A stretch of DNA of 17,492 nt from positions 1 through 17,492 of the forward strand of contig DAOVET010000049.1 in assembly GCA_030668825.1 (NCBI GenBank). Direction: 5' to 3'. Source of the stretch: Candidatus Heimdallarchaeota archaeon. GTDB lineage: Archaea; Asgardarchaeota; Heimdallarchaeia; Heimdallarchaeales; Heimdallarchaeaceae. Below the pieces are notes generated by a model. That model saw only the letters and a list, made by a program, of their open reading frames with translations, was not told the origin of the DNA and searched no databases. The position numbers and the translations under genes were made by a program. This document shows, one piece after another, positions 3,345 to 16,265 of this stretch (the stretch's first letter is position 1; the number at the start of each line of letters is the position of its first letter).

Positions 3345-4655
3345 TTAGTCTGAACTCTCTACGTCAACACAACCTTCTGGTGTTATTGCAAATACAGCTT
3401 CTGATTCTGGTAAATATGGTGAGTCATAAATTCTAATAATTCTCTTCTCGCCTTTGGATTTTCTTAAATAGAATCTAGTTATAGCCCAGTGACCAAGGAT
3501 ATTTCCACCAATCGCTTGAGTTGGATCACCAAAAAAGGCTGCGGGATTTGACTGAACCTGGTTTGTGATTGCAATAGCTACATTATAGGTGTCTGCTAAC
3601 CTTCCAAGAATCCCTAAATGATGGTTGATCGTTTGTTGTCTCTCAGCAAGAGTTCCTCTTCCCGCATATTCTGCTCTAAAATGAGCTGTAGCAGAATCAA
3701 GAGCAACAAGCCCATATTCATCTTTGTGGTTATAAAACAATTCAAGTAATCTTTCTGCTAGAGTCATTTGATGATCTGAGTTATACGCTCTTGCGTAAGT
3801 TATGTCCCTAAGAACATCCTCAAAATTCTTCTCCCAACCTAAATCATTTTGTAATTTACCATGAATTGCTTTAATTCTACTAGGAGAAAATGTTCCCTCA
3901 GTATCTATAAATACAGCTTTCTTTCCAACTCCTCCTAATTCTGGTGGAAGTTGAACAGTTACACAAAGCTGGTGACATAATTGTGATTTTCCAGAGCGGA
4001 AAGGTCCAAAAAGTTCTATAGTCTCTCCAAGCCTTACTCCAGCAACATCTAATTCCTCAATAGTGGTTAACGCATCTAATGCTTTAATTCCATAAGAAAA
4101 AGCTGGAGATCCCTTCTGTTTTTCCATTATTTCAAAGGCGTTAATAAACTCAATTCCTCCACGTACCTCAGTAAGAGATTGCTTGTATTTTTTTGCAGCG
4201 CTTTCTGTAATCCCATACTTCTCTTCTAATTCTCTTATAGGAGTTGTTTCAAGAAGATAAACGTTTAATCCCTTCTCTCTTAACATATCTGCAGTAGTTT
4301 TCCCTACCCCTGGTAAATCTTCTAAACCGATTTCTTCTTTGAAAAATCTATACTTTGGTACTATAGAACTTATTTCCAACCTAATTTTCTTCGCAATTGC
4401 TCTTTGAATCCCCATTGTTTGTAATTCAATGAGTCTTGTTGTCATTAATCCCTCAATAGTTGTGATTTCATTCTCTATTAAAATTTCCAGGGTTTTTTTT
4501 CCTAAACCTGGAACATCCTTAAGTTTAAGCTCAACATCTACTTTTTTCTTCTTTGAATTCTCTTGTTCTTCTATCTCAATTAGATGTTCTTCGTATTGTT
4601 CTCCAATTTCCTTTGAATCAGGCTTAGTGGTTTCTTCCTGTGTTTCTTTGCTCAT
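3345..4655 (-). CDS. radA: DNA repair and recombination protein RadA (Rad51 family) with duplicated N-terminal HhH domain
   Basis: Walker A GPFRSGKSQ, FIDTEGTF, ARAYNSDHQ, Walker B VALDS, FRAEYAGRGTLAERQQ, TNQV, GGNILGH and FxxA motif FINA. Start placed at ATG 4655 (MSKETQ) rather than 4712 because a TATA box lies at 4693-4700. Confidence 0.95.
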   Translation of the reverse strand: MSKETQEETTKPDSKEIGEQYEEHLIEIEEQENSKKKKVDVELKLKDVPGLGKKTLEILIENEITTIEGLMTTRLIELQTMGIQRAIAKKIRLEISSIVPKYRFFKEEIGLEDLPGVGKTTADMLREKGLNVYLLETTPIRELEEKYGITESAAKKYKQSLTEVRGGIEFINAFEIMEKQKGSPAFSYGIKALDALTTIEELDVAGVRLGETIELFGPFRSGKSQLCHQLCVTVQLPPELGGVGKKAVFIDTEGTFSPSRIKAIHGKLQNDLGWEKNFEDVLRDITYARAYNSDHQMTLAERLLELFYNHKDEYGLVALDSATAHFRAEYAGRGTLAERQQTINHHLGILGRLADTYNVAIAITNQVQSNPAAFFGDPTQAIGGNILGHWAITRFYLRKSKGEKRIIRIYDSPYLPESEAVFAITPEGCVDVESSD

Positions 4656-4692
4656 ATTATGCACCACTGCTATTACTCCGAAGAGGTTAGAG

Positions 4693-4700
4693 TATTTAAA
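4693..4700 (-). promoter_or_regulatory. Probable TATA box of radA
   Basis: TTTAAATA on the minus strand about 38 nt upstream of ATG 4655. Confidence 0.5.
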
Positions 4701-4758
4701 GATAATACTCATTTTACACTTACTATTCCTTAAATTTAACTTCTTCGAAGGGAGACCG

Positions 4759-4899
4759 TATTTTGAAACACAAATCTTCTCTATCCATCAACAAGAACAC
4801 ACGACTCAAGAAGACAAACTCTTAGAAGACATGATCGCTCTGGTCACCTCTTTTGCAGGAAGGCTACACAGACAACGGAGAGGAAAAGCACCGCCATAA
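4759..4899 (+). pseudogene. tnpA: IS607 tnpA (serine recombinase) C-terminal fragment
   Basis: YFETQIFSIHQQEHTTQEDKLLEDMIALVTSFAGRLHRQRRGKAPP* matches the IS607 TnpA C-terminal helix (E-L-x-EDL-x-x-I-x-TSF-x-GRLY-x-x-R). No start, HTH or catalytic domain upstream. Confidence 0.85.
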
Positions 4900-4917: not shown

Positions 4918-4925
4918 TTTAAATA
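4918..4925 (+). promoter_or_regulatory. TATA box of tnpB copy 1
   Basis: AGTTTAAATAGC about 30 nt before the TTG start, conserved in copy 2. Confidence 0.65.
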
Positions 4926-4955: not shown

Positions 4956-6884
4956 TTGGTCACACAAACAGCAACCAAACTACAAACACTCATTCCCACC
5001 ACTTCAAAGGGAGTAATGAGAAGTTATCAAGTAGTGCTCAAATGCGCTGACCAATCCCAACGAGAAGAGATTAACAAGAGGATTAGAACACTAGAAGAAC
5101 AGCAAGATCAGCTGCTCACTCCTCAAGTAATTAAACAAGCTGTGGAAATGTACAGAACCAATCCCAAAGAAGGATTCTTCACCCGCCAACTCTGCAAAGA
5201 AGTAGGCCAAAGCCCGAATATAGCGGAAAGTGCCTTCCATTGGCTGTACATCGCTATCAAAGGCAAGATAGATAAGGAGAAGAAAGCACAAGGGCTCTTT
5301 AATTTTATGTTGAAGAATCCTCAGCAGCTGATAGAATGGCTGATTTTCGGTCGTTCACCTTATACCGAAAGCAGTTTAGAAAACTTTTGGCGACTAAAAA
5401 GAAGATATATTATTAACCTCCTCACCAGTACTAGATTACAAACCGATTCCTATTGGAGAAAAAAAAATAAAACTATCTATACCTCCGATTTTCTACAATT
5501 GAACGCACTTCTTCCAACGTGTTCGCAACCTGAAGTCCTGCAAGCTCTAGATGATGCACTGTTTTACTACAATCATGAATTTTCGCTCATACCACAACTT
5601 ACTAAGAATCAGAAAGCATTTCTGAAGAAACTCAAACTGTTGAAAAAAGAACAATCAACTGTTGTCCCTTTTCTCACTTCATGGATCAATAGCCCTCAAG
5701 ATTCTCGATGGAAAAGTCTCAAAATATTAGCTGAACAACTAGCTACAATTATAGGTAAACCTTCCCGAAAACTCTTTTCAGCAGTTAGACTGATAGTCGT
5801 TTTCACACTCTTTGATCATTACATGCAGAGTGTCCCTCAGTTAGTCAAGTCTCTTCCTATAGCTAATGTTGTTCCCCCACCATTTAAACGTAAAAAGAAA
5901 GGAAGATTGCCAATCAAACTATTAATGAAAAAAAACTATGTTATCACCCGCCAAGGGAATGCTCAAGAATTGACTGACCAAGTAAAGAAACAAGGATGGA
6001 CTGAACTCGGTTTTCCAAGAAAAGGGAAACAAAGGTTAACTGCTCAGGTTCATTTTCCACCAAAAGTAGTAGAGTATATACAAAATGGTGCCCACATCAA
6101 AGTGTTCCAAGTAAACAGTGGACAAGCGCCTAGTTGCAAACCTCGGGTGGATGTAGTACTAGAAGGAACCCATACTTGTTTCCATTCTTCCACCCTTCTC
6201 CACCGCTATCTTGCTAAGATTCCTGCAAAGAAAACTTCCATCCTTGGAGTAGATATTAACCGACTAGGACAACATATGGTAGTGTTTAACACCTCGGTAG
6301 CTCTCCCTCCAGATTTACTAGATTTAGCTGCACACTATGATCATCTTAGTACAAAAGTCCTAGATGAGCTTAACAGAGGTTTACTCCGTAAACGAAAGGA
6401 GTATGATACTCATGAGTGTTGTAAACTCAAGGGTGAACTCAATCGCGTCTATACTCGTCGTCATCGTATCCTTCGAGAGATTACTCGTCTTCTCCCCCAC
6501 TTTCTAGCGGCTGTTTTGGTGAAAAAACAGACAAAAATACTCAAGATTGAACGCTTAACTGCTGATCCCACTGGCACTAAAGGTGCCTTAGCTAAAGCTA
6601 TTTACACCATGCCTGACAGTTTGTTCATTTACAAAAAAGCTGTGTGGTTAGCTTCTTTGGAGTTAGGCTATGATGTGCAGTTAGAAGCTGTTCGTCCTTA
6701 TCACACCAGCACCATTCATTACGGGTGTGGAGGTGTGCTTGCTCGTCAAAAAGGTCAGTATGATGTTGCTCCTTGTAAGAAATGTGGACAACAGGTCAAC
6801 ACTCACTTCAATGCTGCTCATAACATTGCTTCCCTTCCAGGTACCCTCCTTCCTCCCGATTCCTTCCCCTCACCGCACGTGTAG
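4956..6884 (+). CDS. tnpB: Large TnpB-family RNA-guided protein (642 aa), RuvC D-E-H variant
   Basis: RuvC-I ILGVDIN (D433), RuvC-II KIERL (E532), TS-x-x-HYGC...CKKC zinc finger and RuvC-III NTHFNAAHNI (H617 where Asp is canonical); lies downstream of an IS607 tnpA remnant. Confidence 0.9.
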   Translation: MVTQTATKLQTLIPTTSKGVMRSYQVVLKCADQSQREEINKRIRTLEEQQDQLLTPQVIKQAVEMYRTNPKEGFFTRQLCKEVGQSPNIAESAFHWLYIAIKGKIDKEKKAQGLFNFMLKNPQQLIEWLIFGRSPYTESSLENFWRLKRRYIINLLTSTRLQTDSYWRKKNKTIYTSDFLQLNALLPTCSQPEVLQALDDALFYYNHEFSLIPQLTKNQKAFLKKLKLLKKEQSTVVPFLTSWINSPQDSRWKSLKILAEQLATIIGKPSRKLFSAVRLIVVFTLFDHYMQSVPQLVKSLPIANVVPPPFKRKKKGRLPIKLLMKKNYVITRQGNAQELTDQVKKQGWTELGFPRKGKQRLTAQVHFPPKVVEYIQNGAHIKVFQVNSGQAPSCKPRVDVVLEGTHTCFHSSTLLHRYLAKIPAKKTSILGVDINRLGQHMVVFNTSVALPPDLLDLAAHYDHLSTKVLDELNRGLLRKRKEYDTHECCKLKGELNRVYTRRHRILREITRLLPHFLAAVLVKKQTKILKIERLTADPTGTKGALAKAIYTMPDSLFIYKKAVWLASLELGYDVQLEAVRPYHTSTIHYGCGGVLARQKGQYDVAPCKKCGQQVNTHFNAAHNIASLPGTLLPPDSFPSPHV

Positions 6885-6967
6885 GGGACCCACTCAAACG
6901 ACGGTTAGACGCCTTTTGGCAAGTTTAACCAAGTTTCATAACGTGTGTATTTTGAAAGTAATGAACT
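6865..6967 (+). ncRNA. Predicted omega-RNA (reRNA) 3' scaffold plus guide, copy 1; 5' end unknown and probably inside tnpB
   Basis: Hairpin 6865-6888 with loop CGCAC, hairpin 6903-6930, terminal GTGTG 6943-6947 complementary to the loop; predicted guide starts at 6948 (TATTTTGAAAGTAATGAACT). Confidence 0.75.
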
Positions 6968-7007
6968 GATTAAATGAACTGGTTTTTTATCGAGAAAATT
7001 ACTTTTT

Positions 7008-7517
7008 TTAGAAATCTATCCCTTTTCTTGCTTCAATACCCTTGGTGTAGGGATGTTTAATTTCTTTAACATCAATGATTGTATCAGCTTTTGATTTTAG
7101 TCCTTCTGGAAATTTTCTTCCAGTCAAGATAATCTCATCACTAACATAGGGAAAGATTCCCTTCAATTGATCCCAAGAAATTAATCCAAATGAGAGAGCA
7201 ATTCCTGCTTCATCCAAAAGAAGTATCTCAACTTGAGCTTTCTTTAGTTCTTTTTCTAGAACACTGATACCATTGTTTATCAAAGCTATATATTCATCTT
7301 TTTGATCCTTCGATTGATAAAACCTATCTTTCCCAAACGTAAACCACCTTACATTATCCTTATCCTTAAAAAAATTACATTCTCCACAGTTTTTACCAGT
7401 TTTTAGGAATTGAGCTACTAATATAGATTTTCCTTCTCTTTGCTTTTGAAAAATATGACCTATACCTGTTGTTGTTTTTCCTTTTCCTTCTCCAACTATG
7501 AAGGTAATCTTAACCAT
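7008..7517 (-). CDS. cobO: Cob(I)yrinic acid a,c-diamide adenosyltransferase (CobA/CobO/BtuR)
   Basis: GEGKGKTT P-loop, QFLK, LLDE, LTGR and KHPY...ARKGIDF C-terminus. Start likely ATG 7517 (MVKITF); the ORF track gives 7550. Confidence 0.9.
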   Translation of the reverse strand: MVKITFIVGEGKGKTTTGIGHIFQKQREGKSILVAQFLKTGKNCGECNFFKDKDNVRWFTFGKDRFYQSKDQKDEYIALINNGISVLEKELKKAQVEILLLDEAGIALSFGLISWDQLKGIFPYVSDEIILTGRKFPEGLKSKADTIIDVKEIKHPYTKGIEARKGIDF

Positions 7518-7619
7518 TATCTGAAAAATAGATTTATCTCTTTTAAACATTGACTAAAAGAGTCAGTGTAATCTAAATTAAAACATATTTAGATACACTG
7601 GCTTGGAAAGTTCAAAGAC

Positions 7620-8081
7620 TCAGATTTGTATTTCTTCTTGTTCAAGATTGGTTTCATTGTTTTTACGTTTCTTTTCTTCCTTTTCCCTTATTTGTCTATT
7701 CTTTTCTTCTTCTAAATGTTTTAGCCCTTTGTCTTTCAATTTTCCAACTCCACCACAAACTGGACAAACATCTTTTCTAGCTTCTTTTTTTGGTCCAGCA
7801 TCTACATATCCCGTTCCATAACAATAAGGGCAATTTGTCCCTATAACCTTAGCACCTGATCTTGCATAAATATATGATAATAGTAAAAATAACGCACCTA
7901 ATCCAATAGTGATGAAACCGGCTATTTCTAGTCCTCTTGCATCAATTCCGCTTTCCTCAAAAACAGCAACAGCTTTATCATACATATATAGTCCTACAAT
8001 AAGCAGAATACCACCAAATAGAAAGATGGAATATTGGATAACATAGATTCTTATATTAGAAACTCTTCTTTTCCCTTTCAT
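7620..8081 (-). CDS. Membrane protein with two TM helices and a DnaJ-type zinc finger
   Basis: Two hydrophobic segments, then CPYCYGTG and CPVCGGVG (CxxCxGxG twice) and a charged tail. Confidence 0.75.
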   Translation of the reverse strand: MKGKRRVSNIRIYVIQYSIFLFGGILLIVGLYMYDKAVAVFEESGIDARGLEIAGFITIGLGALFLLLSYIYARSGAKVIGTNCPYCYGTGYVDAGPKKEARKDVCPVCGGVGKLKDKGLKHLEEEKNRQIREKEEKKRKNNETNLEQEEIQI

Positions 8082-8175
8082 TATTGTTTGATTATTTGTT
8101 TAAACGCTGAAAAATTTTGTGCTTATGAAGAGAATGAATAAAGAAGAAATTACCAGAATCTCTATCTGGTTCTTC

Positions 8176-8727
8176 TTATCTTCCTGCTCGTTTCAAAGTT
8201 TCATTTTTTATTGCATTTCCTAGAAGAGTTTTAACTAATCCCCCTACTCCTTCTCCAGTTAATGCAGATGTTTCAAGATATCTACAGCCTAGTTTTCTAG
8301 ATATTCTTTTTGCATCTTCTCTTAAAACTTCACGTTTTGCATCAGTTTTATTACCAACAATTGTAATATCTAAATCAAGATTTTGTTGTCTAAGTTCCCT
8401 AATCCAGTTTGCACACTCTTTGAATGATTCTCTCCTAGATACATCAAAAATAATTGCTGCAGCATTGGTTCCTGAATAAAGAAGATTCCTGACTACTCCA
8501 AATCTTTGTTGTCCTGCCATATCGTAAAACAGTGCTACTGCTTTTCCTTTGCCTGTTTTAAATGAATAAGTGTGGAATTCAGCTCCTATAGTTGGCTTAT
8601 AATGTTTTAGAAAAATATTTTCTGTTATTCTTTTGCAAATTGTTGTTTTTCCCGATCTACCAGGACCACATATGGCTAACTTGTAAATATCGTAATCTCG
8701 AAATTTAACTTCCACTTTAGAATTCAT
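8176..8727 (-). CDS. Rab/Ras-superfamily small GTPase
   Basis: G1 GPGRSGKT, G2 PTIG, G3 DMAGQQRF, G4 NKTD, G5 ETSAL; no C-terminal prenylation Cys. Confidence 0.93.
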   Translation of the reverse strand: MNSKVEVKFRDYDIYKLAICGPGRSGKTTICKRITENIFLKHYKPTIGAEFHTYSFKTGKGKAVALFYDMAGQQRFGVVRNLLYSGTNAAAIIFDVSRRESFKECANWIRELRQQNLDLDITIVGNKTDAKREVLREDAKRISRKLGCRYLETSALTGEGVGGLVKTLLGNAIKNETLKRAGR

Positions 8728-8764
8728 GCAGTTAGCACCAAGATAAACCTCTAAAAAATTAATA

Positions 8765-8866
8765 AAAGACGATGTAATACTAAGCGCACATCATGAAACT
8801 TGGTTAAACTTGCCAAAGGCTTTTTAACCGTCGTTTAGGTGGATCCCCTCATGTGCGATGAGGGGA
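8765..8866 (-). ncRNA. Predicted omega-RNA 3' scaffold plus guide, copy 2
   Basis: Perfect 9-bp hairpin TCCCCTCAT-CGCAC-ATGAGGGGA (8866-8844), hairpin 8829-8802, terminal GTGCG (8789-8785) complementary to the loop; predicted guide starts at 8784 (CTTAGTATTACATCGTCTTT). Confidence 0.78.
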
Positions 8867-10778
8867 AAGGATCAGAAGGAAGGAGGAAACCTTGGAGGGA
8901 TGCAATATTTTGAGCAGCATTTTTATGAGTGTTGACACGTTGACCACACTTATTACAAGGGGCAACATCATATTGACCTTTTTGGCGAATAAGTGAACCA
9001 CCACACCTATAATGAATTGAGCTAGTATGATAGGAAGGGACTGCTTCTAATTTTATATCATAACCTAACTCTAGTGAAGCTAACCACACAGCTTTCTTAT
9101 AGATGAACAAACTATCAGGCATGGTGTTAATAGCTCTAGCCAAAGCACCTCTGGTACCAGTGGGATCAGCAGTTAGGCGTTCAATTTTTAACACTTTACA
9201 TTTATTTTTCACCAACACTGCTGCTAGAAAGTGAGGAAGGAGACGGGTAATCTCACGCATGATTCTACTGCGACGAGAATAAACCCGATTGAGTTCACCC
9301 TTGAGTTTACAACTTCCCTGAGTATTATACTCTTTCCGTTTTCTGAGATATCCTCTGTTAAGTTCTCTCAGCACCTTTGTACTGAGATGATTATAGTGAT
9401 TTGCTAATTCTAATAAATCTAGAGGGAGAAAGATTGGAACATTAAATGTCACCATATGTACTCCTAAGCGGTTAATATCTAGTCCTAGAATTGACATTTT
9501 CCTCTTTGCAGGAATATTCGTAAGATAGCGATTAAGAAGCTTAGAAGAATGAAAACAATCCAAAGTTCCCTCAAGAACCACATCTACCCTAGGTTTATAA
9601 TGAGGTGCTTTACCACTGCTTACTTGAAAGATTTTAATATTTGTTCCAGTGTTAATATACTCTAATATTTTTGGTGGAAAGTGAACCTGAGCAGTTAGTC
9701 GCTGTTTTCCCATTCTTGGAAAACCCAGTTCAGTCCAGCTTTGTTTTCTTACTTGTTTTGTCAAATCTTTTGCATTCCCTTGACGGGCTATTACATAGTT
9801 TTTTTTCATTAATAGTTTGATTGGCAATCTTCCTTTCTTTTTACGTTTAAATGGTGGGGGAACAACATTAGCTATAGGGAGAGCCTTAACTAACTGAGGG
9901 ACACTCTGCATATAATGATCAAAGAGTGTGAAAACGACTATCTGCCTAACTGCTGAAAAGAGTTTTCGGGAAGGTTTACCTATGATTGTAGCTAATTGTT
10001 CTGCGAGTTCTTTGAGACTTTTCCATCGAGAAGGTTGAGGACTATTGATCCACGAGGTGAGAAAAGGTATTACAGTATTCTGTTCCTTCTTCAAGAGTTG
10101 GAGTTTATTTAACAATGCTTGCTGATTCTTTGTCAGTTGTGTGAGAATTGAGAATTGATTCTGTTGATAGAACAACACATCATCTAGAGCTTGAAGAACA
10201 TCAGATTGTGAGTATGTTGGAAGGAGAGAGTTGAATTGATGGAAGTTAATGAAATAGCTGTTTTTGTGTTTTTTTCTCCAATAAGAATCGATTTGAGTTC
10301 TCGTACTGGTGAGGAGGTTAATAATATATCTTCTTCTTAGTCTCCAATACTTTTCCAAACTTCTCTCAGTATAAGGTGATCGACCAAAAATTATCCATTC
10401 CACTAACTGTTGAGGATTTTTTTGAATGAACTCTAGTAATCCATGAACTTTCTTTTCCTTGTCCATCTTGCCTTTGATGGCGATATATAACCAATGGAAA
10501 GCACTTTGTGCAATGTTGGGGCTTTTTCCCACAATTTTGCAGAGTTGACTGGTAAAGAATCTTTCTTTCGGATTATTTCTGTACAATTCCACAGCTTGTT
10601 TAATCACTTGAGGAGTAAGTAATTGATGTTGTTGATATTCTAGATCTCTTATCCTCTGGTTTATTTCTTCTCGTTGGGATTGATCTACACACTTCAGCAC
10701 CACTTGATAGCTTCTCATCACTCCTTTAGAACTAGAGGGACGAAGAGCTTGTTGCTTGGTTGCTGTTTGCGTGACCAT
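8835..10778 (-). CDS. tnpB: Large TnpB-family RNA-guided protein (647 aa), RuvC D-E-H variant
   Basis: ILGLDIN, KIERL, HYRC...CNKC and NTHKNAAQNI (H618); colinear paralogue of 4956..6884, roughly 80% identical by eye. Confidence 0.9.
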   Translation of the reverse strand: MVTQTATKQQALRPSSSKGVMRSYQVVLKCVDQSQREEINQRIRDLEYQQHQLLTPQVIKQAVELYRNNPKERFFTSQLCKIVGKSPNIAQSAFHWLYIAIKGKMDKEKKVHGLLEFIQKNPQQLVEWIIFGRSPYTERSLEKYWRLRRRYIINLLTSTRTQIDSYWRKKHKNSYFINFHQFNSLLPTYSQSDVLQALDDVLFYQQNQFSILTQLTKNQQALLNKLQLLKKEQNTVIPFLTSWINSPQPSRWKSLKELAEQLATIIGKPSRKLFSAVRQIVVFTLFDHYMQSVPQLVKALPIANVVPPPFKRKKKGRLPIKLLMKKNYVIARQGNAKDLTKQVRKQSWTELGFPRMGKQRLTAQVHFPPKILEYINTGTNIKIFQVSSGKAPHYKPRVDVVLEGTLDCFHSSKLLNRYLTNIPAKRKMSILGLDINRLGVHMVTFNVPIFLPLDLLELANHYNHLSTKVLRELNRGYLRKRKEYNTQGSCKLKGELNRVYSRRSRIMREITRLLPHFLAAVLVKNKCKVLKIERLTADPTGTRGALARAINTMPDSLFIYKKAVWLASLELGYDIKLEAVPSYHTSSIHYRCGGSLIRQKGQYDVAPCNKCGQRVNTHKNAAQNIASLQGFLLPSDPFPSSHMRGST

Positions 10779-13439: not shown

Positions 13440-16265
13440 TTAACTAAACCAAGAATCAAGAGATTTTTGTCCTTCAATTGATTCTCCCCAGGAAATACCT
13501 ATGGTATCCAACAGCTGTATTAATGTAGATTTAAGTAGTTCTTTAACTTTAGGTATATCCACATCTGATTTTTCAGCTAATTGAATTGGTTTTACAGAAC
13601 ATTCTTTGCTTCGGCTAATTTGGTCTGAAAGCTTAATGGATTGAGCTTGTATCTTAAATGGTTTAGTTTTGATAAAACTAATCAAAGATCCTACAGTTGG
13701 CTTTTCACCATCAGGAAATGCTAACATAAGTTGGATTGCGGCTTGTAATGGTTGGGTCCAACTATCGTATTGCTCAATTTTCTTAGATAGTGTTACATGT
13801 ATTGCTAAATCTTCAAGTTCAAAATTCCTTTTAGATATCTTTTGGTTAACAGCTTGTATTATTCTTATTATCTTCTTCTTAGTTTCTTCTAATTCTTCAG
13901 GGGTTTGAACCCCTGCTAAAATTTCTAAAGCTTTTTCAAATGGTCTTTTTGCTAAAATTGGAGTATTTTTCTTCCTACCCATCAAACCCTTTACTATTGG
14001 ATATCCTTTAGTTGTGATTCCAAAGTAGTTTTTCTTTCTATCTGAAAGTCCACAATAACGGAATACATAATCAGTTCCTAATTCTATCTGAAAGGTTTCC
14101 ATGCTCCATTTTTCCAATTCCTCGATATTTTCAGGGGTTGGTTTGTGTATGAAAATACTATCTGTATCCCCATACAGAACCTGCAATCCTAATTTCTCTT
14201 CGCTATATTTTTTTGTTTTAGAAATTGCTTCTCGAGCAAGAGCCGCAGTTGACTCTGCCACAGGAGGACAATACAAAGCAAAATTATCTGAACCAAAAAC
14301 ACCATAGGAGGCGTTAAGTAGTACTTTTAGAGAAGATTGTATGACATCACTAAGTTTTCTTTCTTCTTCGCTTAACGATGGATCTTTTGCTCTATCTTTG
14401 AACCAGTAAACCCTGATATCCCTTATGAATCCAATTAGCATGGAACTCATACCCACATGCTTTTCACATACCCAATGACTGGTTTCTGGTATTTTATTCT
14501 TCTTGCACTCAATATGATTACAATTCAAAGTTTCATACGATAGATTTCTAGTTTTTATAATGGAAGGATAGAGACTAGCAAAATCCATTACATGAACATC
14601 CCACCATACACCAACTTGTGGATCTATTACAATGGCTCCTTGATACTTCTTTCCTTTAATGATGGCTTCAGTTGATGTACCTCCCTTTAATTGAAGAATA
14701 TCCTCTCTCCTTGGGATTAAATAATTTCTGAGCCTGTGTTCAAAGTACATCCAATTCTGGATCCATATACTGATACTTGCTCGAGTAAAATCATCTATTG
14801 GCATTTTTGTAATTCGAGAAAGCATTACTACTAAGTTAATTACTTGATCATTATTGAAACTGGTTAATTCAAAGGTTATTTCAGAATCTCTTCCATTGTA
14901 TTTAATAAGTTCCTCCAAATCCAAATCCCAAATTTCTTTTTCAAGCTTAAGTTTCTCCTTGCCTAGAATTGTTTTTCCAAGTTCATCAAGGGTTACTCTG
15001 TCGTAAACACCTCCAAATGCATAAATTCGAATGGCGGGTTGTCTAAAAAATCTGTATAAATCAAGATGTATTGAGTGGGAAAGGTAAACGTCCTGAGATC
15101 TTGTTCGTATAAATGGATTCAATTCTTCATCAATGTTAAGTTTCTTCGCTCTATTATCTAAATATAGGAAATCAAAACTATCTCCATTAAATGTAATAAC
15201 AATAGGATATTTGCTCATTTCATCAAAAACTGCTAGAAGCAACTCTTTCTCATCATCAAACTCTTTAACCTTTATTGAAATTTTACTTTTATCTATTTGT
15301 TTTTTTTCTTCATTAAGCACAAAAACAGTGGTTTCTCTTTCTTCATTTGTTAAGCCTATTGAGATTACTTTCTGTATGGCGGCATGAGGATCAGGGATTT
15401 TGCTTTTTTCACTCTCAACTTCTATATCTACTGAACACCTACTTATTTTAGGAATAGGAGCAAAGAATATCGGAAGATACTGCTCAACTAATTGCAAAAT
15501 TTCATGAGATTGTCCTTTAAAGATATCAAGTAAATTGTCTTTAACTTCATTGGATATTTTAGGTTCCACTCTTTGTAGTTTGTTGTTTTTAACTTCATAG
15601 AACAATCCTGGAACTAGTCCATTGTCATAGATATAATTCAAATGATATCTAATGTTAGCTTCAAAAGAGGGGCTGATTTTTTCCCTATAACTATTATCTC
15701 TCCCCCCAATTACTAGCGGGTTTGTTGCAAGTACCTTTGTTAGAGTTAATTCTTTTTCATTAAGTAGACTGTATTTCTTAATAACCTCACAACCGATAAA
15801 CTCTTTTTCATTCGCAAATTTCTTTTCTACTTCAGCTTTACTTACTGTAGTGAGCAAATATGGCAGGTGGTTTGTTGTATCATACCATCTGAAAACTTTA
15901 CCTTGTTCTGGGTTGAACAGTTTTACATATGCCTTCTCTTTTTTACCATCATATTTTACATCAATAAGATAGGAAGGGGATAGATTTTCGGGAGCAAGAT
16001 GAACATAACTGCTTCCCTTTCCTCCAAAGGATTCCTCCTTCGAGTTATTTGCTGGTTTTTTATTTATGTTCAGAGAAGAAGCTCCTTTAGTTGGAGTTGA
16101 TTCTTTATTGTCTTTTATATCAATCCGGGAACTCGAATCTCCTTCTTTCTCATTATTAGAATTTGCTTTGTTTGAATCTTGAATAAAACTCAATAGATTT
16201 TTATTATCATTTTTCACGATAGATCTACTCACTCTTCCATTTTGATGCTCATCTCTAAATTGCAC
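13440..16265 (-). CDS. polB: Family B DNA polymerase (archaeal PolB1-like)
   Basis: Exonuclease motifs DIE, FNGDSFD, YNGRD; polymerase motifs DFASLYPSII, KVLLNASYG, YGDTDS; C-terminal PIP box QKSLDSWF. The N-terminal YDGKKEKAYVKLF...YDTTNHLPYL resembles crenarchaeal PolB1. Start uncertain (GTG, low-complexity N-terminus). Confidence 0.95.
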   Translation of the reverse strand: MQFRDEHQNGRVSRSIVKNDNKNLLSFIQDSNKANSNNEKEGDSSSRIDIKDNKESTPTKGASSLNINKKPANNSKEESFGGKGSSYVHLAPENLSPSYLIDVKYDGKKEKAYVKLFNPEQGKVFRWYDTTNHLPYLLTTVSKAEVEKKFANEKEFIGCEVIKKYSLLNEKELTLTKVLATNPLVIGGRDNSYREKISPSFEANIRYHLNYIYDNGLVPGLFYEVKNNKLQRVEPKISNEVKDNLLDIFKGQSHEILQLVEQYLPIFFAPIPKISRCSVDIEVESEKSKIPDPHAAIQKVISIGLTNEERETTVFVLNEEKKQIDKSKISIKVKEFDDEKELLLAVFDEMSKYPIVITFNGDSFDFLYLDNRAKKLNIDEELNPFIRTRSQDVYLSHSIHLDLYRFFRQPAIRIYAFGGVYDRVTLDELGKTILGKEKLKLEKEIWDLDLEELIKYNGRDSEITFELTSFNNDQVINLVVMLSRITKMPIDDFTRASISIWIQNWMYFEHRLRNYLIPRREDILQLKGGTSTEAIIKGKKYQGAIVIDPQVGVWWDVHVMDFASLYPSIIKTRNLSYETLNCNHIECKKNKIPETSHWVCEKHVGMSSMLIGFIRDIRVYWFKDRAKDPSLSEEERKLSDVIQSSLKVLLNASYGVFGSDNFALYCPPVAESTAALAREAISKTKKYSEEKLGLQVLYGDTDSIFIHKPTPENIEELEKWSMETFQIELGTDYVFRYCGLSDRKKNYFGITTKGYPIVKGLMGRKKNTPILAKRPFEKALEILAGVQTPEELEETKKKIIRIIQAVNQKISKRNFELEDLAIHVTLSKKIEQYDSWTQPLQAAIQLMLAFPDGEKPTVGSLISFIKTKPFKIQAQSIKLSDQISRSKECSVKPIQLAEKSDVDIPKVKELLKSTLIQLLDTIGISWGESIEGQKSLDSWFS

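Follow-up and report, generated by a model that had tools for sequence, protein, structure and literature searches.

The window considered here is the whole of contig DAOVET010000049.1 (17,492 nucleotides (nt); assembly GCA_030668825.1) from a Candidatus Heimdallarchaeota archaeon, and it carries a tnpB-like gene in two inverted copies, whose proteins are 79% identical. A short module at the right end of each copy (positions 6865-6948 on the plus strand for copy 1 and 8866-8784 on the minus strand for copy 2) is very probably the conserved core of a guide RNA (omega RNA, or right-end RNA (reRNA)) of a Heimdallarchaeon transposon of the IS607 family, in which a pseudoknot sets the start of the guide. 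A first-pass annotation made from the two copies had already proposed an omega-RNA scaffold with a pseudoknot beside the guide, and this proposal is borne out by covariation in two clades, by strand-specific G-U pairs, and by agreement with the IS607 reRNA design given in the accessible text of PMC10711439.

In this model, transcription in the sense direction of tnpB would run through the last codons and the right end into the flanking DNA, and the resulting RNA would fold into a stem-loop (stem-loop 1) and a composite stem (stem 2). The apical loop of stem-loop 1, CGCACG, would then pair with CGTGYG, the six bases just 5' of the element end, and this pseudoknot would define where the guide begins, namely at base 6949 in the flank. 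The TnpB-like protein would be expected to bind the scaffold, and the guide to recognise an unoccupied insertion site beside a short motif ending in GT.

Covariation of the right-end fold

The module consists of the final 20 bases of copy 1 tnpB and the 64 bases 3' of the stop codon (84 nt in all). Stem-loop 1 (6865-6888, plus strand) has its arms at 6865-6872 and 6880-6888 and its loop at 6873-6879. In copy 1 it reads TCCCCTCAC (6865-6873), CGCAC (6874-6878) and GTG-T-AGGGGA (6879-6888), the extra T at 6882 being bulged and giving a TAG stop codon at 6882-6884 and a protein tail ...PHV*, while copy 2, on the minus strand, reads TCCCCTCAT / CGCAC / ATGAGGGGA and its protein ends ...HMRGST*; the letters, the bulge and both tails are thus as first annotated. 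Composite stem 2 (6896-6936, plus strand) is built of an outer AAAC/GTTT helix (6896-6899 with 6933-6936), an inner helix of GGTTAGA and TTTAACC (6903-6909 with 6924-6930), and an apical GCC/GGC helix (6911-6913 with 6918-6920). The pseudoknot joins CGCACG (6874-6879), the apical loop of stem-loop 1, to CGTGTG (6942-6947), with one G-U pair in copy 1; this tail ends in GTGTG (6943-6947), where copy 2 has GTGCG. In the module of copy 2 (8784-8866, minus strand), the corresponding strands are CGCACA (8857-8852) and TGTGCG (8790-8785), followed by the last base, C8784.

Both copies fold better than expected by chance. The 83-nt sequence of copy 1 has a predicted free energy of -27.5 kcal/mol versus -18.3 ± 3.1 in dinucleotide shuffles (z = -2.99; one of 200 shuffles as good), and that of copy 2 gives z = -3.24 (none of 200 as good); the fold comprises both proposed hairpins. 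Furthermore, the module differs between the copies at only 15 of 84 positions, versus 51% of the synonymous tnpB sites. Two copies are by themselves insufficient against chance for a 5-nt match between loop and tail; the family, to judge from its sequences, excludes chance.

The family is multi-copy. Besides the two window copies of the module, the host genome contains two more (four in all), of which one is degenerate and sits at the end of a contig and the other is gene-less; it also contains two paralogous genes that are 41-43% identical. Across the 31 genomes of the taxonomic family, the protein is present in 29, and a covariance model of the module finds matches in 24 (150 listed and 42 unlisted, about 192). 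From the loci fetched, 65 right ends were extracted, of which 48 are distinct; these make up a 94-column alignment (A2) in which column n corresponds to window base 6860+n. When the structure of the first-pass annotation is placed on A2, 94.3% of 1336 cells are paired and 11 of the 28 pairs are changed on both sides, as against 2.4 ± 1.1 such pairs in shuffles, none of 500 of which reaches 11. Sliding the partners by one to three columns lowers pairing to 17-42%. The helix of stem-loop 1 is 97.4% paired in the 48 homologues, and the second stem, which had been described as a preserved GGTTARA...TTTAACC, is indeed kept, its inner helix being 96.4% paired with double changes in four of seven pairs; the apical GCC/GGC helix is 80.7% paired, a lower value because an indel shifts the alignment. 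As claimed earlier, the bulged T sets the protein tail: it occurs together with a short ...HV*-type tail in 23 of the 48 right ends and is absent from another 23.

The five-pair form of the pseudoknot, as originally proposed between the loop CGCAC and the last bases of the element (columns 14-18 with 83-87), is 98.3% paired, with three of five pairs changed on both sides, so that the complementarity is kept by homologues. The U-A to C-G double change that had been assigned to stem-loop 1 does exist between the two copies, but in just 24 of 47 homologues do bases 6873 and 6879 (columns 13/19) form a standard pair. The partner of 6879 is rather 6942 (columns 19/82; G-C in 45, A-U in two and another combination in one, hence paired in 47 of 48), the A-U combination being found in copy 2 and in the orthologous copy of another species. 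With the A of copy 2 thus answered by a tail T, the pseudoknot gains a sixth pair, giving CGCACG (6874-6879) with CGTGTG (6942-6947). In this form it is 98.3% paired over the 48 right ends, with four of six pairs changed on both sides (slid controls, 21-41%), and all six pairs are intact in 44 of the 48, in six compensated versions: CGCACG/CGTGCG (26), TGCACG/CGTGCA (4), CACACG/CGTGTG (2), CGCACA/TGTGCG (2), CGCTCG/CGAGCG (1), and AACACG/CGTGTT (1). One broken copy (L072, G013:C43) has an inverted apical loop, CGTGCG for CGCACG, a near-palindromic word that can still pair with the tail by way of two G-U pairs. When 130 nt of upstream coding sequence are added in 45 sequences, RNAalifold finds no further helix with double changes, merely an alternative GUAC/GUGC pairing with no compensated cells.

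The strand of the fold is likewise determined. G-U pairs occur on the tnpB sense strand in 22 of 48 rows at one pair and in 18 of 48 at another; because these would be A-C mismatches on the opposite strand, the folding strand is the sense strand of tnpB.

The same design recurs in paralogues that are 41-45% identical. Of 20 paralogue 3' regions fetched, two at contig ends and one with a duplicate right end (L119) were dropped, leaving 17 right ends (alignment A4). Stem-loop 1, an extra hairpin, the composite stem, a CTTCAT motif and the tail are all kept, although the letters differ, and the helix between loop and tail has seven pairs (CGCATGT/ACATGCG, CGCATAC/GTATGCG, CACATGC/GCATGTG, CACATAC/GTATGTG). 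The A4 structure is 88.0% paired, versus 79.1 ± 1.0 in shuffles (none of 500 as high); for the pseudoknot the figure is 84%, and double changes occur at three of its seven pairs.

The element, its boundary and its protein

Full copies of the element carry, upstream of tnpB, a TnpA of 196 amino acids (aa) with a MerR-type helix-turn-helix domain and a resolvase domain (in L040:861-1451, Resolvase 8.2e-24 and MerR 9.3e-10), and a full-length or nearly full-length TnpA is found in six distinct loci. The element is therefore of the IS607 type. In the window, the tnpA of copy 1 survives as a remnant of an IS607-type serine recombinase gene (4762-4899, plus strand) that comprises the last 45 or so codons and ends ...GRLHRQRRGKAPP*; tblastn with the full L040 TnpA matches aa 150-194 only, and the sequence 5' of the remnant is the antisense of radA. 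Between remnant and gene lies an archaeal TATA-like box, TTTAAATA (4918-4925, plus strand), 31 nt 5' of the tnpB start, which is conserved in upstream alignments of the family and presumably acts as a promoter. The tnpA trace of copy 2 is more degenerate still, and the left end is absent from both copies. Having lost left end and tnpA, the window copies cannot move. For the same reason, and because the orthologue of copy 2 has an in-frame TGA, the earlier argument that both loci were under selection for RNA function is not supported. That orthologue (L048, genome G008), in which the TGA falls at codon 84, shares with copy 2 both its flank and the A-U variant of the pseudoknot; therefore, the insertion is older than the split of the two species.

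The right boundary follows from relatives for which the unoccupied site is also available. Ten left ends have in common A-C-Y-G-T, five bases, ACTG, and then AAAACTTA..CAATCTTRCCA. For the full tnpA-tnpB element L040, the empty site, present in four genomes including the host (contig C103), reads ...TCTCAGAACGT and then directly TATACTTCAAT, whereas the occupied site reads ...TCTCATACCGT, the element, ...AACGTGCGT and then TATACTTCAAT. (The unoccupied form in the host genome lies at G000:C103:1130-1468, L125.) For a mini-element of 360 nt, TCATTATGC is preceded by ...TTAACTGT, TTAACAGT or TTAACAGC in the empty sites, and the occupied site reads ...TTTGACCGT, the element, ...AACGTGCGT and then TCATTATGC. 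Both comparisons place the right junction directly 3' of GCGT, at column 88 or base 6948. Similarity among homologues likewise reaches a near-invariant T at 6948, one base past 6947. The scaffold/guide boundary, which had been placed after 6947, thus lies between 6948 and 6949.

In these same comparisons, (C)GT alone is repeated at both junctions, without a long target duplication, and so the last two bases of the pseudoknot overlap the shared motif, of which T6948 is also part. In the two relatives, the flank that stands behind ...GCGT at the occupied site comes directly after AACGT or ACTGT at the empty one (the window copies have no left junction); in neither relative do the bases immediately left of the junction agree between the two states of the site. 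Flanks vary among copies, and no T-run marks the boundary. The presumed guides are 6949-6968 on the plus strand for copy 1, a length assumed from the design of the family, and 8764-8783 on the minus strand for copy 2. In the host genome, neither of them has a second target: the perfect match is the guide itself, plus one match with three mismatches.

The protein of copy 1 (4956-6884, plus strand) has 642 aa and that of copy 2 (8835-10778, minus strand) 647 aa. A TnpB/Cas12f fold is evident in the AlphaFold model (pLDDT 87.6, predicted template-modelling score 0.79), in which an all-helical region at residues 33-298 accounts for about 270 extra residues. Foldseek matches it to Cas12f (E 1.7e-9), ISFba1 TnpB (1.6e-8) and ISDra2 TnpB (7.1e-7), and the best 50 of the 62 PDB matches at E<=0.001 are all of the Cas12/TnpB type. 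The Pfam model Cas12f1-like_TNB gives 25.3 bits for copy 1, below its threshold of 26.3, and 27.9 for copy 2, above it. Among cluster representatives, 162 of 1.84 billion match at E ≤ 0.001. In an alignment of 31 sequences, namely the two window proteins and 29 of the 150 listed matches that were near-full-length by eye, D433, N435, E532 and three Cys never vary, and conservation is at least 90% at H588 and H617; the zinc finger (HCCC) is H588-C591-C607-C610. The RuvC residues are D433-E532-H617, and against Cas12f (PDB 8HR5) VNTHFNAAHNIA aligns with VNADYNAARNIA, so that N-T-H stands in place of N-A-D. Judging from these alignments, His thus replaces the third catalytic Asp of RuvC throughout the family (D-E-H, not D-E-D). 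By analogy with its relatives, the protein would bind the RNA and cut DNA.

Gene-less elements and alternative explanations

An indication that an RNA may be made comes from elements that lack a gene. Twenty covariance-model matches distant from any protein match were inspected; nine are at contig ends and 11 are internal. In nine of the 11, a GTTTATATA-type box and a non-coding leader of about 130-170 nt stand directly 5' of the module, and of the other two, one has a leader but shows no box in the stretch inspected, and one is a bare module. Two mini-elements whose complete extent could be measured span 323 and 360 nt, and gene-less elements match full ones at the left end, in the promoter region and at the right end; a search for the left-end pattern found no match in two of four mini-element loci. 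By blastn, the leader has no similarity to the tnpB coding sequence. The gene-less copy in the host genome (contig C127, 11495-11587, L004) has a leader of the same type. Because the promoter faces the module in elements without a gene, these loci argue for an RNA product. The mini-element leaders fall into at least two sequence types (relatives are L081, L091, L093-L100, L134 and L136), and in one species a mini-element interrupts a dehydrogenase-like gene.

However, it should be noted that several observations weigh against a guide-RNA interpretation. Rfam returns no match at gathering score on the window and none at E<=1 on four mini-element loci, and the NCBIfam guided_TnpB model scores only 23.5 and 25.7 bits for the two proteins versus a cut-off of 100. 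The rows of A2 are related, so that cell counts overstate how many changes arose independently, and the same sequences served to derive the structure. Four of the 48 right ends, three of them with a single mismatch and the fourth being the degenerate copy at a contig end, have an imperfect pseudoknot, and six of the 17 paralogue rows, the source of the unpaired cells there, are out of simple register, three with an extra T in the tail and three with the loop CGCCGC. Given the RuvC-III His, nuclease activity is uncertain. The inverted repeat between left and right ends, although only a lead, suggests that some conservation of stem 2 may be at the DNA level. Finally, a search of sequencing runs yielded six, none with half of the sampled window words, and contigs from four were compared; the single contig from one true RNA library is 151 nt long and covers 6530-6680, within tnpB coding sequence and outside the right end. 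A run that is probably DNA gave a contig matching the gene-less copy of the module.

One might suppose that the right end is simply a DNA-level site at which the serine recombinase TnpA binds or crosses over, without any RNA role. Positions 6917-6936 do form an imperfect inverted repeat with the tail of the left end (20 nt, 80% complementary), the left-end motif is kept in ten left ends, and the terminal (C)GT is common to element and target. Yet this inverted repeat scores no better than chance pairs within the element, and a duplex bound by protein has no need of intramolecular covariation, whereas here loop and tail, 63 nt apart, change together in at least five ways, and do so in the paralogues as well. 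The G-U pairs, furthermore, are strand-specific. An exclusively DNA-level function is accordingly very unlikely, and both roles can coexist, as is the case for IS607 in the accessible text of PMC10711439. Less probable still, and indeed the least probable of the alternatives, is that the hairpins stabilise the 3' end of the tnpB mRNA or terminate it rather than forming a guide-RNA scaffold. The structure begins in the last codons and continues past the stop, as a stabiliser or terminator might, but neither would require a pseudoknot that reaches the exact end of the transposon; the module also lies behind its own promoter in gene-less elements, where there is no mRNA to stabilise, and the boundary has copy-specific flanks and lacks a T-run.

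A further alternative is that the window copies are no longer parts of a transposon but have been domesticated as RNA-guided DNA binders without nuclease activity, in the manner of TldR. Their reading frames have stayed open despite the loss of left end and tnpA, the RuvC-III Asp is His, and the ratio of nonsynonymous to synonymous substitution (dN/dS) of copy 1 versus copy 2, L040 and L063 is 0.11-0.15, at dS 0.53-0.86. Such a ratio between paralogous copies, however, mostly reflects the time before stranding, and for copy 2 versus its orthologue it would cover just the 83 codons before the in-frame TGA, a stop that itself argues against domestication. The His is found family-wide, also where tnpA is present and where a fresh insertion has an empty counterpart; the family has many copies, its RNA model matching in 24 of 31 genomes; and neither guide has a second genomic target. 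Domestication thus seems barely more credible than the mRNA stabiliser. A composite transposon made of two end-less inverted copies with 7008-8727 between them also seems unlikely, because the left ends are absent from both copies.

Taken together, these results favour a guide-RNA core at the end of an IS607-type transposon. They also permit a more extended hypothesis, which is possible but doubtful. In it, an Asgard-restricted clade of proteins of about 640 aa, with a D-E-H RuvC site, an H-C-C-C finger and a helical insert of about 270 residues, would form a trans-acting guide network in which gene-less mini-transposons with their own promoters feed guides to proteins encoded elsewhere. The last two bases of the pseudoknot would double as crossover and target letters of the recombinase, so that RNA fold and transposase specificity would have to co-evolve, and the His site would belong to a working, chemically distinct nuclease.

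Related systems and neighbouring genes

The closest known counterpart is the reRNA of the IS607 element ISXfa1 of Xylella fastidiosa (Yoon et al. 2023, PMC10711439). As described in the accessible part of that report, an IS607 TnpB requires a pseudoknot in which the apical loop of stem-loop 1 pairs with five guide-flanking bases, and the scaffold of IS607 includes the fixed flanking base. The Heimdallarchaeon element resembles ISXfa1 in having a serine-recombinase TnpA, a guide RNA read from the right end into the flank, pairing of the apical loop with guide-flanking bases, and one or more crossover-motif bases within the scaffold. It differs in that the terminal common letters are (C)GT here and GG in ISXfa1, that the conserved core is just 84 nt, and that the protein has 642 aa with a large helical insert, D-E-H instead of D-E-D and an Asgard host; in addition, it is known from sequence alone.

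The protein fold matches those of the ISFba1 TnpB-reRNA complex (PDB 8IAZ) and the ISDra2 TnpB-omega RNA complex (PDB 8H1J). There, too, the scaffold has a pseudoknot, which is needed for cleavage according to the accessible text of Ren et al. 2024 (PMC11061315). Both proteins are smaller, however, at about 380-410 residues, and their motif is the canonical NAD. The ISFba1 scaffold is 187 nt long with two pseudoknots and a RAGATH-18 core, whereas the module here matches no Rfam family. A conserved RuvC-III change of Asp to His is characteristic of TnpB clade RIIIr-4, and in the accessible portion of Altae-Tran et al. 2023 (PMC10691335) it is read by the authors as rearrangement rather than loss. 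This likeness extends to other branches with an altered RuvC-III (the archaeal Ser-6 and RIIIr-6), some branches being archaeal and linked to a serine recombinase, but the zinc finger is absent from RIIIr-4 according to the same portion, while the H-C-C-C finger is kept here. Finally, gene-less PATE-like elements of the IS200/IS605 group encode omega RNAs, as described in the available text of Meers et al. (bioRxiv 10.1101/2023.03.14.532601). Like them, the mini-elements encode no protein, keep both ends and the guide RNA, and would depend on a TnpB encoded elsewhere to use the guide; unlike them, they have IS607-type ends, an archaeal TATA promoter of their own, and a leader of about 130-170 nt unrelated to tnpB coding sequence.

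In the accessible parts of the literature on TnpB in Asgard archaea and on IS607 TnpB pseudoknots, no description of the 640-aa Heimdall family was found. The system is nevertheless an ordinary, well-preserved example of the already known IS607/IS605 guide-RNA design, and it leaves the existing understanding of the TnpB mechanism unchanged. What it provides, for the guide RNA of an archaeal IS607 lineage with an unusually large protein, is a secondary structure supported by covariation and the exact position at which scaffold gives way to guide, and it is an example of one stretch of DNA serving transposase and RNA fold alike. These would be useful for bench tests, for example of a possible compact-to-medium genome-editing nuclease from Asgard archaea.

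Several features lie near the elements without belonging to them. Between the two tnpB copies are three unrelated genes (7008-8727), encoding a CobA/BtuR-type adenosyltransferase, a protein of 153 aa with weak zinc-ribbon-like matches, and a Ras-family small GTPase. Eukaryote-like genes of the sort typical of Asgard archaea occur in the window at 1092-1559, 3345-4712, 8176-8727 and 13440-16265; their products are an E2 ubiquitin-conjugating enzyme, a Rad51/RadA protein with helix-hairpin-helix repeats, the Ras-family GTPase, and a family-B DNA polymerase. Elsewhere, a paralogue that is 43% identical lies about 45 nt from tRNA-Cys(GCA), on the opposite strand, in six of 18 paralogue loci from different species (G000:C4 (L101), L105, L115, L117, L118 and L120), and looks like an old, syntenic insertion. 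The right ends of paralogues L102, L110, L113 and L119 enter tRNA-like 3' sequence for which ARAGORN makes no call.

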